Assembly (NCBI GenBank): GCA_010405405.1
Contig: MU004238.1
Coordinates: forward strand, 1,065,530 to 1,129,529
DNA from: Microthyrium microscopicum
Taxonomy: Eukaryota
Direction: 5' to 3'
Length of the DNA: 64,000 bases
Below are positions 32,164 through 41,560 of this stretch, one piece after another. Within the stretch, counting starts at the first letter, position 1; every line of letters begins with the position of its first letter. Below the pieces are notes generated by a model, which ran no database searches, was not told the DNA's origin, and saw only the letters and a list, made by a program, of their open reading frames with translations. A program made the translations under genes and the position numbers.

Positions 32164-33947
32164 AATCACCTACAAAAGGTATAGTAGTTGGAACGGCCCT
32201 GATTGGTCAAGGATAAGAGATGTCGTGAACTCTGTTAAGGGATGTAGTCATGGTGGGTGGTTATTTTGCATGATTGTGCTCCCCGTCCAGGAACCAGAGC
32301 ACGTACACAGTAGAAGAGATAGAGTAGTGGATCGAGATTTGTAGAGTGAAGCAAACCTAGGCGTAGAATTGGCACGAAGAGCGGTATTTACGAATTTCCG
32401 CGTAGGATCTGCCGCCTGCGTAATGACGAGTCCACGCCGGTATCTCCACCCACACCGCTGGAAAAGAAACGATCTGATATCGGTGGGAATTTGGGCTGGC
32501 CTATAGAGCGGGAAAGGCGTCGATTAAGTGCGCCATTAACCTTTGGCTTTCGGAAAAGTCGAGAAGTATCGCGAAGGGCTTTAAAAGGCAACAACAAATG
32601 AGGTTTGAAGTCTTCACCGACGCTGAGGGTAAGAGCGATACTACGTAAAAGACCAGACCGTCCAGATATCAAGGCAATTTTACACTTGGAGGCCCAGCCG
32701 CTCGGCAGTACTCATGCACCTTACTGCCAGGCAGCCTATCTTTCCCTCAGCGTCCGGTAGTCCGCATAATGACCCCGGTCGCCTGACATGACGGCGGACA
32801 TTGAGCAATGAGAAGGCGAGATTGGTATTAGAGTTTGTTGGTGAAGAAACAAAGGGGACGTCACTCCAGTGTAACTTCTGCATGTTCTAACTTCTTGGAG
32901 CCTTTTGGACATCTCGAGTCTGGACGCAAAGACACTCGGGTGTTCAAGTTCCAAACGCGGCAAGATCAGCGTCAAATTATGTTGGTGGTTATGAACGAAA
33001 CTCTGCTCTGTTAAAGCTAGGCACATTATTGCAGGCTGTTCAATTGTGCTGGACTTGAAAATACCCATCCCAGGTAGTAGGTACGAGTCAAAAGAACCCT
33101 TGTCGATGTTCAAGATAAAGAGCAAAATGGACCAAAGGGAGGCGGGAAAATGAACAGCCAAGTCAGAGGCTGATGATGATTGAATACACCCCACTGCACG
33201 CTTACCCAAAACAGCTGGGCCCTGTGGGGGTCCCCGGGTGGTTGGGGGTTTTTCTCCAGGTTTGGTGTTTTTGACTTTCGCAGCACTTGATTCGTGTGCT
33301 GACACAGCATGACCTAAAATGTTCCGATGCACGCCTACTTCATCTCCTATCTTTTTGTTTACATTCTCACTGTTGGGGTTTGATGAATGCATAGCACCCG
33401 ATATTCACCATTAAGACCATATTTGAGAAGCAGTTTGACTTATTACTTTATCTAAGGTGCATAGCCTTGATGACACTTTTATCGCGGCCAACAAGTACTA
33501 CTTATACAAAGTTCAATAATGAGTCTCTGCTGGTCAATCTGCGTGCTGTTCATCGAGCACTACACTAACATCCTGACCTTCCAGAATTGCTGGAGAGCGT
33601 CATGCTGCCCACGATTGAAAAGACCCCCAGCGCCTTGCAATGCAACAATGAACGGAAATGATATGCAAACATTCGGGCTCATCCTTGGACCAGAAATGAA
33701 GGATCTCATGTAGCTTCTTCAGCCTTCAGCTCAGTCTTAGCCTTCGCAGCCAAGGCAGCCTTAACAGCCTTAGCAGCCTCGCTTTCACGCTTTGCCGACT
33801 CCTTCTGAAATTCTCTGTCGATCTGATCTGGAGTGAGGTGTTTCAATTCAAACCGAAACTAAGTTTTCCATAGTCAGTAATGGGTAGAACAATGGACGTC
33901 GTGGCTCCTAATAATAATGGGTTGTGTGCTTCCAGAGGCTGGTCTCC

Positions 33948-35528
33948 TTAGTTGCTTACTCGCTCACGGTATTCGGAATCCTGGTCCTCGTAAGGTTCCG
34001 TGAAGTACTTGTTGATGTTTTGCTGTTTTCCGAGCCAGTTGGTCAAGCTGTTGATTTCTTCCCTTAATCGGGAAGCTGACTGGTGGTCCATGTTTGTCTG
34101 AGCAATGAGTTCAGGGAGACTCGCTATACTTGGTTAAAGCTGTGATCAATGGAAGCTTTCAAGAGCACGACTTACAGAAGAGGCGCAACAGGTGCTCGCC
34201 TCCGTAGATGTCTCCAATGTCACGGCCTTCTAGCTCGTCACCAGGGGCGTTGATGCGATTGAGAATATCCAGGTATTGTCCTCGCTCGTACCGATAGAGT
34301 AGAACTCGACCTAGGGCTTTGTTGAAGTACACTTTCATGCCATGTATCGACTCCTCCAGAATATCTGCTGAAGTTCCGAGCTGTTGCCGCTTGGCAAGCT
34401 CCTGCTGATAGTAGTCTTCTAGGATCTTGTTGGCTGAGGTGTTTTTGGCCGGCACACGGACTAGCTGAAGGTTTTTGGTGACGTTTTCCCAGTCATCAAC
34501 CAGTATGCTCTTTAGGGAGTCCGGTAGAATGATGCGGATAGCCGGACGGCTGGTGTAGGCTTCTTCCTAAAGCTATTGGTCAGCGCCTGAGTCAGAAAAA
34601 AGCGAATCGTATGTCAATTCTATGTGAACGCGTATGATAGTGAGGTGATATACGTTTTCCATCTCCCGGCGAAGAGCGCGGCGTTGCGACTGAGCAGACT
34701 GCGACGAGGTTAATTCATGGAGAAAGTTCTGGGTTTGGCGAGGCTTTGCATACTGGTACGTGGCTTGGTGGATGTTGATTGCTATTTGAGCGGTTTGTCT
34801 GTGTCCTATTCGACTGCGTCGCTCTTAAACCGTTGAGTTTGACGCGAGGAGTTGTCTTGATTCGTGCCATGTTGATTGTGGTCTCGGGTTTTGAAGACCT
34901 TTTGCTATGGGAGGGAAATTCGATGGATAATACGTGTCAAATATTGGGAGGGGTGGATGGATGCAGTGCAGAGGGGGATGAATTAGTGAGGTAGACGAAC
35001 CTTTTCTGTGTCGAGGTCGCGGCCACGCTTTTTACCCGCAACAGCACCTCGCTCTTCACTGTCTGCAACAGAGGGTTCTCCCTTTTTCTTCTGAGCACCC
35101 AGTTTTGAGCCTCCCTTTTGCGCTTGACGAAGATCCAACATTTCCTTTGCTAATGCCTTTGCTAATTCTTGGTTGTCTTCATTCTTTTTTCTGAGCCGAT
35201 CCTGAGGAACCCATTGATCCCAACTATACGATGATCAGCGAAATTCGAAGCAAAACCTCCAATGCGCCCATTGAAATACTAATAATCGACGCATAAAGTA
35301 TTTCCATGGCTTGCTATTCTGGTACAGCAATATCGCTTGCTTGGAAGGTCCCTAGGACACTACTTACGTTCGTTTCCAACCCCGATAATGAACAAAGTAC
35401 TGGTACGCGTTTTTCTTGTCCTCTGCTGATTCGTCGGGTTTGAGGTTCAGCACCTTAGCTTCGTAGAGAAGCTCTTGGTGAAAGCACAAGACATCCTCAT
35501 CTTTGGTGAAAGCCGAGTTTGGAGCCAT
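33948..35528 (-). CDS. EAF3: Chromodomain/MRG protein Eaf3 (exons 35528-35368, 35223-35001, 34566-34176, 34123-33948; alternative last exon 33858-33706)
   Basis: LCFHQELLYEAKV...HYRGWKRTWDQWV chromo-barrel; MRG domain LKSILVDDWENVTKNLQLV, LLYRYER, IYGGEHLLRLF, PELIAQTNMD. Confidence 0.93.
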
Positions 35529-35754
35529 GGTACCAGCCTGTAGCAATGGTCAAGAATGATGTCTGGTGATGGTTGCAATGTTAATCGAGGTGCACGAAGG
35601 ATTGCTGATGACTGCCGGAGGTGATTGTATCAGGAGCGTGTTGCAATATCAATATGCAGCGGTGTGGTGATGCAGCAACAATGAGCTGGGATGGTGTCGT
35701 TGGGAAAGGACGTTTAGGTCGCTGTCTCCACATTTTATTGGTGGGAGCGCTCGG

Positions 35755-35772
35755 CGCGTCAGTTTTACGCGT
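35755..35772. promoter_or_regulatory. MCB-like elements (CGCGTC, ACGCGT) in the EAF3/CNL2 divergent promoter
   Basis: ggcgcgtcagttttacgcgtc about 135 bp upstream of the CNL2 ATG. Confidence 0.4.
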
Positions 35773-35904
35773 CGTGCTTCCATTATCCATGCAGTCAACT
35801 ATCACTGCGCCAACTTCATTGCTTCCTTAAACTCGATATATTCGATACTTATGGTTCCTGTGGTTCTTTGGACTGGCATTCTCTAGTTCCGATATGCCAT
35901 CATC

Positions 35905-36558
35905 ATGCCCGAAAACACGCCAACTGAATCGTCCATCCTACGCGCTTTTCTGCTAGTCCCTGCCCCGCTGTCGGTCCAGATCTCGCTCGAGCAATTCACA
36001 GAATGGTTTCCTGCGCAATATCAATCCAGCGAGGATATTGAAGTCTTGTATCGGATACTGCAGAATCAAATACAGCAAGACATTGACGAGGTCGGGGAAA
36101 ACATTGCCGCTGAGGCCAAAAGAGGAAAGAAACAAATGCGTGAGGTCAAAGTTTCAAGGGCGACAGAGCACCAGGCACGGGTAGAATCTCTTGACATTCA
36201 AGACATCCACATGGACATGGAGGTAAGTTATTTGATACCGCGTATTGAAAAACAACTGCTTACTGGCTATGCTTCACAGCTGCGCGACGAAACCCAACGG
36301 CACTCAGTGCTGGGTGAAGCGCATGACCAAGAGTCTATTATACCTGCTATGGCTGCAGCTTGCAAACAACTTGAGCAGGAAATAATCGACACTGAAGAAG
36401 CAGCCCGTGTCGCACTACAAGATATCCAGGCAACAGTCGGAGAACTCAGTGACCTTCGCTATGGTCGATTGCCCAAGACAGGTAATGAGCCGCTTGGTAC
36501 TGATATAGTACAGCGATTACATCGACTGGAGAAAATATGCCGGGAACTGGAACCATAA
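35905..36558 (+). CDS. CNL2: Kinetochore protein of the Cnl2/Nkp2 family (in-frame intron 36223-36279)
   Basis: PTESSILRAFLLVPAPL...FTEWFP N-terminus and VGELSDLRYGRL C-terminal motif; coiled-coil composition. Confidence 0.75.
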   Translation: MPENTPTESSILRAFLLVPAPLSVQISLEQFTEWFPAQYQSSEDIEVLYRILQNQIQQDIDEVGENIAAEAKRGKKQMREVKVSRATEHQARVESLDIQDIHMDMEVSYLIPRIEKQLLTGYASQLRDETQRHSVLGEAHDQESIIPAMAAACKQLEQEIIDTEEAARVALQDIQATVGELSDLRYGRLPKTGNEPLGTDIVQRLHRLEKICRELEP

Positions 36559-37841: not shown

Positions 37842-38987
37842 TGCAGCAGCTTGCGGATCTTTGGACAAGCCGATGGGAGCACAATCCCATAGTACACTAG
37901 GAGAATATTACCTTGAAGGCGGCGTTGTTCTGCTTTCTTGGTCCCGGTTATGAATTAATAACACAAACAATGGTTTTTGCAGAGTAAACACATTACTTAA
38001 AGTGATTATTGTTTTTTCGAAAGGCAGACGGTCGGCGCTGGGACATACTATGGTAGTACTCTGAGAAGGCGTAGAAGTTGAACTAAATTGATGGTATCCT
38101 ATTATTTAATTGCCCAAATTGATATTAAGCACTGTGACTGGTGTCGTGCGTTCACTAAATGCGGTGTTTATATTCAGACAGGAAGGGTAGGAGAGCCAAG
38201 GGCTGAACGAGCCGGTAAAGTAAAAGGCCGGTCGACGTGATGAGCGTCATTCTCTGAGAAGTATCTACCAATTTTGATAGAAGCTGAGAAAATAGACGTC
38301 TGCTATTGGCACTAAAGCAATCGATATGGGAGTTTAATGGATAGGAAATAAATATGCAGCGTTGCGGATGGGACACCAGTTATAGGAGGCAGCTCCACGG
38401 GTACTCTAGAGTAGAGATTGTACAAACGGTGGATGATTAGTAATTATTCCAGCGCATCAATTTCACGCGTCTCAGAAACACTAACAATGCACCCAATCTG
38501 TTTGCTCTCTATGGCCACTTGTAAACAAGACACTCGTCTCAGTACAATAATCTCCACTACTGGTCGGCAGGACTCAGGAGTGCATTTATCCACACCTCGT
38601 GCTTGATCTCAAGCTTGATATCTTACCACGTGGGTGCTTCTTTCCTATCGAGTTTATGACGCGCGTTTGTGAGGCAGGCGCGACTGCTTCCTGGAAAATT
38701 ATCGATTAAACCTTGGGTCGTTCTTTCCCATCCCATCCTGTCAATTTGGTTGGCTAGACGCATGGACCCCGTGTAAGGTGTAACTCAACACCAACTCGTC
38801 GCACTCCACCAACTAAACAACAACTCAACTCCCTCTTGCCATCAACTCGCCCATTTTCCCCGTCGCTTCTCTGTCGCATCATCGCTCTCCATCGCTGGCC
38901 TTATCCCATTGCCTGCGCAATCAACACCCTCTTCCAGCTGGTTGCCAGCTCGTATTCTTCCTCCATCGACCGTCTTTGACCCTAAAC

Positions 38988-41560
38988 ATGCCTCCTGCGT
39001 CGGCCCGCGGCCGCAGAAGTCGTAAAGACACTGATCTGCCGAAACCCGATATGAGTATGCAAGATGTGCAGGATGACATCCACACTCCTACTAGAAAGCG
39101 CCGGAAGGTATGGCTCTTCCAAATTATCTCTCCCTCTTTGCCCCTCGCTAATTTGATCCAGGTAAACGGACTTGACACGAACGCTTCCATTCAATCTTCA
39201 TCCAAACATCGCCAATCCACCGACACCGAAGAAACCGTAGACAACGCTGCACTTGACCCAGATGCCGAAGAGGAGCCCCATAATTTTGCTGACGAAGTCA
39301 TCCGGCACTTGCGCGTTGCCTCGTATTCCGCTGCCGTTGTACAGCAATATAACAATTCTGTTGTCGATTCAAGTGCTCAAGCTTTTGCCAAAATTGCAGG
39401 CCGGGACTGGACATTCTATGTTTCCAAACTACATGTCGGGATTGGCCGTCCAAATGCCCGCAAGTCAATAATGCCAGATAGTGAAGACATCCAAGGGTCA
39501 CCAGCAGCTCCAGGAGTAGATATCGATTTGGGTCCCGATCAGCAAATATCTCGCATGCATGCCGAGATCTTATTCAACCATGACAAAGGAACTTGGCATC
39601 TAAAAATAAATGGTAGAAATGGAGGCTATCTCGATGACAAACGACTTGAACGTGGATCCATCACACTTCTTCATTCCGGCCATGTTGTCAACGTTTTGGG
39701 TACTCAAATGATGTTTCTGCTACCTGGAGTGAGCCCAATCGTTCACCCATCGATACAAAAGCAATTGAACGCTGAAGAAGAAGACGAAGATGACACGGAA
39801 ACTGAGCTCAAGGCTGAACTTCCTCTGCCTCCCCCTAGTTCATCCCGTAAAAGTGGCCGTAACGTGAAATATCTTCCAGCAGCTCATCCACCAGGATCCA
39901 GCTCTCGAGGTGCTGGCGCGCCTAGTTCACAGAATGGGCCAGGCACTCCACTTGGCAAGTTCAAAGATGTTTTACAACCTAAGACCAAGATATCTCCCTC
40001 GTACCATCGCGGTGTCATGATGGAGAGCACCGAAGAAATCGACTATTCACTTGATGTTGCCCGCGACATCAAGCCGCCTCACAGCTATGCGGCAATGATT
40101 GGTCAGGCAATTTTATCTACCCCCGAGGAGAAAGCCACACTGGCCAAGATTTACGAGTATATCAAAGACAAGTATGCCTACTTTAGACATTCAGGCCAAG
40201 GTTGGCAAAACAGCATTAGACACAATCTTTCTCTCAGCAAGATGTTTGAAAAGGTCCCTCGACGAACAGACGAACCTGGAAAGGGTATGAAATGGCAGAT
40301 TGTTGGGGAGCATCGAGAAGAGTTCATGAAGAAGAATATGCAACCGTCGAGACGCGCACGAAACATTGGATCATCTACACCGAACTCTCCAGCGACAATG
40401 TCTGGCCCTGTAGCACAAACAGAGCGACTCATGGGAGCCATTGGTGAGCCTAGTTCAGCGACTCGAAAGAAACGACTCCGTTCTATCACACCACCTCTCA
40501 GTTCTTATCCTGTCGCTACCGAATCTTACACCCCAGATCGTGGTCCGCAAGCTTCGTTTCTGACTTCTGGGCCACTTGCTCCTCTACCTGTCACAAACAC
40601 TCCGCCAACCGGCCCTATGTCTTTGACGCCAAGTCTCGACCGCTCCGGTAGTGATCGAGGCGTTGGTAACACTCCTGGTCAAAACCGGATGCCACCGAAC
40701 GGAATGAATACCGCGAGCTTCAACTCACCTCCGACGTTGGCAATGGGCAATACTCCATTTGAGGGGCCACCAGGAACACACTTATTCACTCCTCTACCGG
40801 TAAAGTCTCGACCATTAGCAGCTGTGCAGAGTACTTGCAAGGCACCTAGCTTCTATGCCAAAGACTTGTTCTCAAGTCCAGCACCATTTTGGAAATTTGC
40901 CAACGTTGGTAGCACGCCCGCTCGCCTCCCTGAACTTTCACCGTTCAAAGCAGAAAATCAAGGAGACGACACAACAAGCCCCATCAAAATTTCCGCGGAG
41001 GCTGAACCAGCACAGGACAAGGAAAATGACAAGATCGATGAAGACGTTCAACCCTCAAGTCCACCTCTCGTAACTGCTGGCTCAAACGACAATGACGTGA
41101 GTCCAACTCGGACAGTAAGTAGACCTGTCAGTCGCAGTGTTGCTTCTACATCAATACAACCAAGCTTCGCTGTATCAGTTGAACAAGGTGTCGAGACGCA
41201 ATCTACCGAAAAGGATGCTCAGGACAGTAAGGATGACCAAGCTCCTGCACCAGAAGGATCTGCAACACCATCACGATCCATCACTGTTGCCCAAGAATCA
41301 ACATCTCCTATACCAACATACCCCAAGCCCCTACCAGCTATGCTAGCAATGAATGGAGGCGGTCCTCTTGGTCCTCGGGTCAGCTCCTACTCTCATCCCG
41401 ACACGGAAGAGGATGAGGATGGCGACATTGATTTGACTCGGTAAATAAACCCTACTCATCCTACATCATCACCACCGTCTTGTACTAACAGAAATTCAGT
41501 GGCTTTGAGAAGATTGGCTCTTTTCACCAAACCATGCAAACCAACGGCGTCGCTCGGTAG
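38988..41560 (+). CDS. FHA + forkhead transcription factor, Fkh1/Fkh2 family (introns 39108-39161, 41441-41499)
   Basis: FHA: FAKIAGRDWTFY, IGR, ISRMHA, GRNG; forkhead: KPPHSYAAMIGQAI...WQNSIRHNLSL...PGKGMKW; C-terminal IDLTRGFEKIGSFH after splicing. Confidence 0.93.

Follow-up and report, generated by a model that had tools for sequence, protein, structure and literature searches.

A probable coding exon within intron 2 of Microthyrium microscopicum EAF3 and a candidate chromodomain-less isoform with a histone H3-like N-terminus

The window analysed here is a stretch of 64,000 nucleotides of contig MU004238.1 from Microthyrium microscopicum, and it contains the EAF3/MRG15 orthologue of this fungus as a minus-strand gene. 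All features of the gene described below are on that strand. Eaf3 reads H3K36me3 on behalf of Rpd3S and also belongs to NuA4. The exons are 100% identical to a public M. microscopicum MRG-domain protein, which we refer to as P0001. Exon 1 (35368..35528, start codon 35528-35526) encodes the first half of the chromodomain, as judged from its translation and from Pfam, which was run exon by exon with each exon taken separately. It matches MSL3_chromo-like (1.2e-11) and Tudor-knot (5.8e-08), identifying a chromo barrel that belongs to the canonical isoform only. Exon 2 (35001..35223) supplies the end of the chromodomain and a basic linker, and finishes with the residues DTEK in phase 0. Between this exon and the MRG exon lies intron 2 (34567..35000), which is 434 nt long and runs from GTTCGT to TTTAG. 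Exon 3 (34176..34566) encodes most of the MRG domain and would be common to the canonical isoform and to the shorter one described below, and exon 4 (33948..34123) carries the end of the domain and the stop codon (33950-33948). The matches of these two exons to Pfam MRG (PF05712, 8.4e-36 for exon 3 and 1.7e-09 for exon 4) place the product in the Eaf3/MRG15 family.

RNA data came from one public run of one organism (X1). The run is recorded as 'RNA? (a guess)' and we took it to be RNA solely on the ground that all three canonical GT..AG introns are missing from its main contig. This contig crosses from exon 1 to exon 2 at a joint (35368/35223) that skips 144 nt, covers exon 2, joins across intron 2 with the entire 434 nt spliced out, and includes exon 3 and exon 4, where it is continuous through the stop codon.

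Intron 2 itself very probably contains coding sequence. The earlier note on this DNA had described the intron, an ATG within it, a 51-residue ORF starting MARIKTTPRVK, two donors and an AG acceptor, and every one of its coordinates and sequence statements was confirmed. The ATG (34870-34868, context ATCAACATGG) is the first in the intron; the 130 nt before it (34871..35000) contain none, and have a C+T content of 0.63 compared with 0.55 for the whole intron. It is in this part of the intron that we would place an internal promoter and a short 5' untranslated region. The ATG lies in an alternative exon, 1a (34754..34886), in which it is followed by 39 codons beginning MARIKTTPRV. Exon 1a ends at a GTATGC donor in phase 0, followed by mini-intron A (34699..34753), which is 55 nt long, ends in CGCAG and has a TTAAC 15 nt before its acceptor. 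When mini-intron A is retained the frame closes at the stop codon at 34715..34717, giving the 51-aa ORF. When it is removed the frame passes into a micro-exon, 1b (34654..34698), of 45 nt or 15 codons (SAQSQRRALRREMEN), which is in phase 0 at both ends. Mini-intron B follows (34567..34653; 87 nt, from GTATAT to TTTAG) and shares its branch region (GCTGAC) and its acceptor with the canonical intron 2. Taken together, the ATG and 39 codons, the 15 codons of the micro-exon and the MRG exon form one open frame of 242 residues with no chromodomain.

A second X1 contig, of 179 nt, maps entirely inside intron 2, at 34886-34754 and 34698-34653, and covers the ATG at 34870. Its joint skips the 55 nt at 34753-34699, which read CT..AC on the plus strand and GT..AG on the strand of the gene. 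This record covers both exon 1a and the micro-exon. A junction other than 35001/34566, which the earlier note had asked for, thus exists in RNA (34754/34698). The same note had proposed that the donor at 34753 joins the 39 codons directly to the MRG exon; the donor is indeed used, and in frame, and its partner is instead the acceptor at 34699, so that the micro-exon comes next. The second donor, GTATAT at 34653, is present and is likely the one that leads to the MRG exon. The junction that this requires (34654/34566) is absent from the X1 contigs and is implied by P0001, which holds the micro-exon between DTEK and EEAYTS and includes the connection to the MRG exon. In P0001 the micro-exon comes directly after exon 2, so that this exon may serve the full-length protein as well. 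We did not count the ends of the internal contig, at 34886 and 34653, as evidence, because contigs cannot show the ends of RNAs. The end at 34653 corresponds to the GTATAT donor plus one base that is common with the MRG exon, a mere hint of a branch. Apart from ambiguous cut positions of the main contig, X1 contig cover is absent at 34887-34999 and at 34566-34652. The depths of the internal and main contigs are 26.5 and 288.8, which is no gauge of the isoform ratio.

The intronic exons might instead be the outcome of unproductive or regulatory splicing of the full-length pre-mRNA, with no short protein made in Microthyrium: a poison exon entered through an acceptor at 34905, a long intron being taken out in nested steps, or noise. 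The candidate AG (34905..34906) had been predicted to put a premature stop into the full-length frame, and its sequence and frame bear this out, as exon 2 spliced to it would stop after 32 codons. The connection of the micro-exon to exon 2 in P0001 also fits such a scheme, as does the internal contig, which is short and, like any contig, leaves the start of its RNA invisible. However, the junction that the acceptor would create (35001/34904) occurs in no X1 contig, which is weak evidence since contigs drop rare forms. Splicing by-products would also leave unexplained why two fungal classes keep the peptide start MAR-x-K-x-T together with a frame that stays open into the MRG exon. In Penicillium and in the Mycosphaerellales-like loci the ORF continues directly into the MRG exon, and no splice is required. 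We consider this explanation improbable.

A still weaker candidate is a separate micropeptide gene made up of the 51-aa ORF, or else a small RNA, for example a snoRNA, encoded in the intron. Long fungal introns do sometimes host snoRNAs, and the ORF is intact. Against the micropeptide, the RNA contig removes the last 12 codons of the ORF together with its stop, and the ORFs of other species lack a stop and continue into the MRG exon. The 51-aa ORF had no Pfam match, and none of five candidates scored in a search for homologues. Its sole match among 1.84 billion representatives (P0121) is an 889-aa tandem-repeat protein with 11 matched stretches, which we regard as spurious. Rfam (E <= 10, 33800-35700) returned two chance-level matches of 13.5 and 13.3 bits against gathering thresholds of 60 and 35, and the intron-hosted snoRNA was set aside on these scores. 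Both versions are very unlikely.

What favours a coding exon is its conservation. The earlier note had set an ARxKxTxR ORF in orthologous introns as the prediction on which its proposal should stand or fall, and such ORFs exist. In Penicillium and in Mycosphaerellales-like Dothideomycetes (the latter with an exon 2 that is 75-87% identical to that of Vermiconidia) the orthologous introns carry an in-frame ORF that begins MAR-x-K and runs into the MRG exon. We collected 20 distinct sequences of this kind; as these were chosen by MAR-x-K and many come from related Penicillium species, their counts are not independent events. Threonine occupies H3 position 6 in 14 of the 20 and arginine position 8 in eight. 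The residue at position 3 changes from one sequence to another (I, T, V, A, Q, E or H), and the extension beyond the motif cannot be aligned. A motif that is kept while its flanks drift is the pattern expected of N-terminal H3 mimics. The extension measures 42-58 aa, compared with 54 aa after splicing in the window, with one exception of 144 aa (P0203). All of these orthologous ORFs are calls on unspliced genomic DNA that run on into the next intron, and they are thus evidence of an intact frame and not of expression.

The earlier note had allowed that a resemblance over nine residues could be chance. When all six frames of 80 orthologous metagenome loci were searched strictly for MAR-x-K, four matches came up. 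Each of them lies within intron 2, shares frame 0 with the MRG exon and precedes that exon by 141-174 nt (MARAK in L025, MARTK in the identical L043 and L049, and MARIK in L074). The remaining ~572 kb of strand sequence in these loci gave none. Because every match fell in this one intron and frame, the resemblance to the H3 tail exceeds chance. No ATG occurs in the ~98-130 nt upstream of the MAR-x-K ATG in the window, L025, L043 or L074. The feature is patchy, however, as MAR-x-K is missing from 76 of the 80 loci, including Cladosporium-like and other loci with a long intron. Other homologue sets gave a similar picture. Among 120 listed homologues of the MRG exon, two have MARIK in frame upstream of it, at the start of the protein in P0082 and internally in P0069. 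A search with the L074 ORF yielded 119 proteins, of which 15 have MAR-x-K, and the named matches among them are mostly from Penicillium. Of 29 ORF calls or models that lack the chromodomain and have an extension of 25-80 aa, 14 start with MAR-x-K. No MAR-x-K-initiated model was seen among the source-named proteins in the homologue listings. Some relatives start with MPRKK, MPPRKK or MAPTK in place of MAR-x-K. The lineages with the motif span two classes, the Dothideomycetes (Microthyriales and Mycosphaerellales-like fungi) and the Eurotiomycetes (Penicillium), so that it is either ancient with repeated loss or convergent.

Together, the RNA joint, the open frame and this conservation make it highly probable that intron 2 contains a real, conserved coding alternative exon that gives a chromodomain-less Eaf3 isoform. 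The core idea of the earlier note, conservation and an alternative junction, is therefore upheld, with different details of splicing and with partial support for its interpretation.

Whether the H3-like N-terminus acts by engaging a reader of the H3 N-terminus is a separate matter. The isoform could be real and conserved, and its N-terminus no reader-binding mimic, if MAR-x-K-x-T were kept for other reasons such as start-codon context, N-terminal processing or stability, a histone-karyopherin import signal of the H3-tail type, or a modification site of its own. The conservation and the RNA data fit this equally, and a G at +4 of the ATG comes automatically with an alanine codon. Many extensions turn basic right after the motif (RTPRR, RLVR, RPPK), and the MPRKK and MPPRKK variants keep the charge and lose A1-R2. 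Yet in the Penicillium-type sequences P0144-P0147 ARIK precedes an acidic stretch and not a basic one, so that a basic nuclear-import signal alone cannot explain the conservation. Positions 1, 2, 4, 6 and in part 8 are kept and positions 3, 5 and 7 are free, which is the register of H3 and not that of a generic basic patch. The motif moreover sits on a protein that takes part in complexes reading the H3 N-terminus (PMC10432269). We regard a conserved N-terminus of this non-mimic kind as a plausible minority explanation. That the N-terminus engages a reader of the H3 tail seems to us somewhat short of an even chance, judged from the conservation pattern and from the published architecture of Rpd3S.

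In that architecture two Eaf3-Rco1 dimers each comprise the MRG domain of Eaf3 and the PHD1-MID region of Rco1 (PMC10432269). PHD1 packs against the MRG domain and binds unmodified H3(1-10) with a Kd of about 39 uM (PMC10432269). We propose Rco1 PHD1 as a target because it forms one module with the MRG domain of Eaf3 in Rpd3S. Compared with the H3 tail that this finger binds, the N-terminus of the short form keeps A1, R2, K4, T6 and often R8; it differs in position 3, mostly isoleucine where H3 has threonine, and is unrelated to H3 after position 8.

The sequence of events that we envisage would begin with transcription from an intronic promoter inside intron 2 and translation from the first AUG (34870). 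In Microthyrium the transcript would be spliced twice, from 34754 to 34698 and, as P0001 implies, from 34654 to 34566, to give an Eaf3 of 242 aa with neither the basic linker nor the chromodomain that reads H3K36me. In the window A-R-x-K directly follows the initiator methionine (MARIKTTPR), as in an H3-mimicking N-terminus. Removal of the initiator methionine is expected before alanine, and the mature protein would then start A-R-I-K-T-T-P-R. This would copy A1, R2, K4, T6 and R8 of H3, which are the alternate residues along one face of the extended tail. The MRG domain of the short isoform would still dock into Rpd3S and NuA4, and the tethered N-terminus could then occupy Rco1 PHD1, or another reader or enzyme that recognises H3(1-4). 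The resulting complex would read neither H3K36me3 nor H3K4me0 and would amount to a built-in decoy or autoinhibited form. As a whole, the reading of a conserved alternative first coding exon, a chromodomain-less isoform and a tethered H3-like N-terminus that occupies a reader is one that we hold to be about evenly balanced.

A more far-reaching version, which we put forward only tentatively and consider doubtful, is that filamentous ascomycetes encode within EAF3 a mimic of the H3 tail fused to an MRG docking domain. Here the short subunit, made from an intronic promoter, would lack the H3K36me3 reader when it enters Rpd3S and perhaps NuA4, and its ARxKxTxR would plug Rco1 PHD1 or offer its K4 to Set1 or to demethylases. 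Co-transcriptional deacetylation would then be tuned or switched off by how much long and how much short Eaf3 is present relative to each other.

Parts of this arrangement resemble known systems. The PHD finger of UHRF1 binds the H3-like N-terminus of PAF15, VRTK, as it does ARTK of H3, so that here too the extreme N-terminus of a non-histone protein is read by a PHD finger through its free N-terminus, arginine and lysine (PMC7060239). PAF15 differs in being another protein with another reader and pathway, found in vertebrates only, and its binding was established by crystal structure and ITC (PMC7060239), whereas for Eaf3 it is inferred. Mammalian MRGX/MORF4L2, and MORF4, likewise have an MRG domain without an H3K36me-reading chromodomain. 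Human MRGX shares the interactome of MRG15 (NuA4/TIP60 and Sin3B), and the two are mutually exclusive in complexes (PMC9253478). MRGX is however the product of a separate paralogous gene, whereas an intronic start would let a single gene make both the canonical and the short form of Eaf3, and the text available from PMC9253478 reports no H3-like N-terminus. Canonical Eaf3/MRG15, with its chromo barrel and MRG domain, is the full-length product of the same gene and has the same MRG exons; in the short form its 128 N-terminal residues (chromodomain and linker) would be swapped for the 54-aa extension.

The probable conserved chromodomain-less isoform with its H3(1-8)-like N-terminus is unannotated, and our searches of open-access full text and bioRxiv turned up neither a short isoform of fungal Eaf3 nor a histone mimic in Eaf3. 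EAF3 of S. cerevisiae is not known to have such an isoform. If true, the arrangement would represent a new type of regulator, in which a mimic of the histone tail is tethered next to the very PHD finger by which the genuine H3 tail is read. How Rpd3S and NuA4 complexes are tuned is an active question. The arrangement would also show that long introns of fungal chromatin genes can conceal coding first exons. No PHD protein was identified among the neighbouring ORFs of the window, which matched Cnl2/NKP2, forkhead-FHA, a GDSL lipase, an AAA_18 domain and a fungal rhodopsin domain.

The EAF3 orthologue of M. microscopicum (Dothideomycetes, Microthyriales) lies on the minus strand, with four exons (35528-35368, 35223-35001, 34566-34176 and 34123-33948) separated by introns of 144, 434 and 52 nt, each of them GT..AG; its product has 316 aa. 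Pfam places exon 1 in the MSL3 chromo-like and Tudor-knot families and both exon 3, the MRG exon, and exon 4 in the MRG family (8.4e-36 and 1.7e-09). P0001, the public 378 aa MRG-domain protein model from this species, matches the MRG exon with 100% identity. For RNA data we used one public run, X1, recorded as 'RNA? (a guess)' and mapped onto 33300-36100. Its main contig carries the joints 35368/35223, 35001/34566 and 34176/34123; since all three introns are absent, X1 behaves as RNA and confirms the canonical model.

The first ATG of intron 2 (35000-34567), set in the context ATCAACATGG, falls at 34870; the preceding 130 nt (35000-34871) contain none. The sequence agrees with the earlier note on this ATG and its context, on an unspliced ORF of 51 aa that starts MARIKTTPRVK and stops at 34717-34715, on a phase 0 GTATGC donor at 34753, which comes after exactly 39 codons, and on a further GTATAT donor at 34653. 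The AG at 34906-34905, when spliced from exon 2, is likewise predicted to give a stop after 32 codons. A second X1 contig of 179 nt lies entirely within the intron, covering 34886-34754 and 34698-34653 and skipping 34753-34699, which is 55 nt with GT..AG on the gene strand. The 34753 donor is thus used in RNA as had been proposed, and the proposed direct joining to the MRG exon gives way to an internal acceptor. This acceptor opens a phase 0 micro-exon on the minus strand (34698-34654; 45 nt, 15 codons), with the GTATAT donor at its end. The ATG with its 39 codons, these 15 codons and the MRG exons form an open frame of 242 codons. P0001 has the 15 micro-exon residues inserted between those encoded by exon 2 and those of the MRG exon, so the annotators too used the 34654/34566 junction; this junction is absent from the X1 contigs over the region. 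The second contig extends 16 nt upstream of the intronic AUG and, although contigs are uninformative on RNA ends and levels, we infer a transcription start inside intron 2. A micropeptide encoded by the ORF on its own, or a small RNA hosted by the intron, is highly improbable, as the splice takes out the ORF's stop, Rfam at E <= 10 gave only two chance-level matches over 33800-35700, and the ORFs of other species continue into the MRG exon.

Searches with the whole 51-aa peptide gave no detectable homologue. As a whole it evolves too fast for one to be detected, so in relatives we examined the sequence that precedes the MRG exon. Of the 120 MRG-exon homologues listed (197 scored E <= 0.001), two have an in-frame MARIK at this position: P0082, a 242 aa protein beginning MARIKRRVVT, and P0069, with MARIKRPPKP within intron read-through. 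In a further homologue, P0071, MAPTKRPAST stands at the corresponding place. The full-length Eaf3 of Cladosporium-like metagenome loci (L039, L044-L047, L054-L056, L060, L063, L064, L066, L068 and L069) starts MAPSKA or MAPTKA, a likeness to this intronic-exon variant that is probably coincidence.

Scanning metagenomes with the MRG-exon alignment returned 80 of 164 confirmed fungal EAF3 loci, eight of which have less than 300 nt upstream and so permit no full judgement. A six-frame search for MAR-x-K gave four matches: MARAKRLVRS in L025, MARTKRLVRA in the identical L043 and L049, and MARIKVTGLY in L074. All four lie within the orthologous intron, downstream of the exon 2 GT donor; they precede the MRG exon by 141-174 nt and share its frame (frame 0). 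Elsewhere in the 80 loci, about 572 kb over both strands, the motif was not found. Exon 2 of L043 and L025 is 87% and 75% identical to that of Vermiconidia calcicola. The L074 ORF retrieved 124 proteins at E <= 0.001 (120 listed, 119 new), and as the best named match is Penicillium cinerascens, with 91% identity over the MRG part, we assign this locus to Penicillium. Among the matches listed, 15 of the 119 new proteins carry the motif upstream of the MRG exon, for example MARIKNTGPD, MARIKRTPRR, MARQKRTPRR, MARVKHTTGL, MARTKHTTDF, MARIKHTPRA and MAREKRTPRR. Pooling the matches listed in both protein searches gave 239 proteins, 100 of which start with M and have no chromodomain motif; an extension of 25-80 aa precedes the MRG exon in 29 of these, and in 14 of the 29 it starts with MAR-x-K.

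Twenty distinct MAR-x-K sequences were obtained, window included, many of them from related Penicillium species; as they were picked by the motif, only position 3 and those from 5 onward are informative. In H3 numbering, position 6 is T in 14 of the 20, position 7 is P in nine and position 8 is R in eight, while position 3 is I in 11, T in three, V in two and A, Q, E or H in one each. Past position 8 the sequences are unalignable. The ARxKxTxR pattern sought in orthologous introns thus emerged as a consensus A1-R2-x-K4-x-T6-x-(R8), which is the H3 register ARTKQTAR. Extension length is 42-58 aa, with P0203 (144 aa) the sole exception, and the window's own is 54 aa once both small introns are spliced out. 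The motif occurs in Microthyriales, in Mycosphaerellales-like loci and in Penicillium, two classes of Pezizomycotina. At the level of sequence, conservation of the start and frame is strong, and the earlier interpretation is borne out in part, with its splice path corrected. It is unlikely that the internal exons represent a poison exon or unproductive splicing, a reading that leaves the conserved peptide start unexplained.

In other species the MAR-x-K ORFs were called on unspliced genomic DNA and overrun the MRG exon into the next intron; as genomic sequence they are proof that the frame is intact and the start conserved, and say nothing on expression. The motif is missing in 76 of the 80 metagenome loci, including Pleosporales-like loci with introns of 50-100 nt and Cladosporium-like and other loci with introns of 150-300 nt, and some relatives begin MPRKK, MPPRKKQK or otherwise. 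This patchy distribution may reflect an old exon with many losses, or convergence. Chromodomain-less extensions with other starts precede the MRG exon in P0152, P0160, P0174, P0176, P0155, P0157 and P0075, one group being acidic with a C-x-x-C motif and another beginning MPRKK or MPPRKKQK; the acidic tail of L074 likewise contains CPRC.

No break separates the ORF from the MRG exon in Penicillium and the Mycosphaerellales-like loci, where it runs across the canonical intron's branch site and acceptor and is therefore translatable only from RNA beginning within the intron. Were the intron retained in a full-length RNA, the ORF's AUG would be far downstream of the main start codon. A promoter within the intron, giving a short leader, would most likely drive the short isoform, which fits the 98-130 nt free of ATG upstream of the start in the window, L025, L043 and L074, the C+T-rich stretch there (fraction 0.63 in the window, 0.78 in L074) and the contig's 16 nt upstream of the AUG. 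The product would lose the chromodomain and linker and retain the MRG domain, on which Rco1 and Eaf7 dock. The initiator methionine is normally cleaved before alanine, and its removal would expose A-R-I-K-T-T-P-R.

The cryo-EM report on S. cerevisiae Rpd3S describes two Eaf3-Rco1 dimers, each formed by MRG of Eaf3 and PHD1-MID of Rco1, with PHD1 binding unmodified H3(1-10) at a Kd of about 39 uM and guiding H3 deacetylation (PMC10432269). Tethered about 45-55 residues from MRG, the H3-like N-terminus would thus be placed beside a reader of exactly that motif. We infer all of its binding steps: it would occupy Rco1 PHD1 in cis, and the resulting Rpd3S would read neither H3K36me3 nor H3K4me0. 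It is possible, if doubtful, that the isoform is real and its N-terminus kept instead for processing, stability or histone-type import; ARIK precedes an acidic tail in four Penicillium-type sequences, which argues against a plain basic import signal.

The nearest functional analogue of the proposed short Eaf3 is mammalian MRGX/MORF4L2, described as a chromodomain-less MRG paralogue found in the complexes of MRG15 and mutually exclusive with it (PMC9253478), whereas the fungal case would involve one gene, an intronic start and an H3-like N-terminus. For that N-terminus the nearest mechanistic analogue is PAF15, whose VRTK is reported to be bound by the UHRF1 PHD as H3 ARTK is, a PHD precedent for an H3-like protein N-terminus (PMC7060239). 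No description of a fungal Eaf3 short isoform or Eaf3-borne histone mimic was found in open-access papers and bioRxiv. None of the source-named models in the matches listed has the MAR-x-K start; P0176 from Penicillium angulare, source-named 'eaf3', is chromodomain-less at 206 aa and starts differently. The feature would unite two things, a putative mimic of the histone N-terminus and an MRG protein that lacks the chromodomain, and its high interest lies in being open to direct tests in tractable fungi.

Other MRG variants were also observed. Botryosphaeriales models P0004, P0007 and P0010 (Neofusicoccum, Diplodia) have in-frame insertions at the corresponding intron position, which may represent a different alternative exon in that order. 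The lysine-rich 25-residue insert of N. parvum is missing from the 322-aa Logan-derived P0003, identical elsewhere over the aligned parts, and the two Diplodia models have in common a conserved stretch, RPAK..KL.NQR.TTA.LTVLKNW. P0242-P0247 form a distinct MRG group, marked by EDEYY.(V/I)PSIHFLVDDNLK where MRG begins and by long acidic N-terminal regions; it may be a second MRG paralogue of some Eurotiomycetes. One of the group, P0245, has a chromodomain.

In P0001 an additional splice beyond the stop codon swaps the canonical C-terminus (...RERVSN-stop) for a 49-aa tail beginning FRFELKHLTPDQIDREF (33700-33965, minus). The X1 contig is continuous and unspliced there, and orthologous proteins terminate close to the canonical stop; the longer tail is probably an artefact of the model or a minor form. 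The main EAF3 contig, of 2402 nt, runs more than 1.3 kb beyond the stop codon, past 33300 (32640-33947, minus); either its 3' UTR is very long or it overlaps a neighbouring transcript. Pfam gave no match for a 218-aa ORF at 32736-33392. On the other side lies a divergent Cnl2/NKP2 kinetochore family gene (35848-36558, plus strand; ORF 35905-36558; Pfam 8.4e-21), spanned by a separate RNA contig from 35848. Its start codon and that of EAF3 are about 380 nt apart, so the two genes have a short bidirectional promoter region in common. Further along the plus strand, an 822-aa ORF (38976-41444) with FHA and Forkhead domains encodes an Fkh-type transcription factor.
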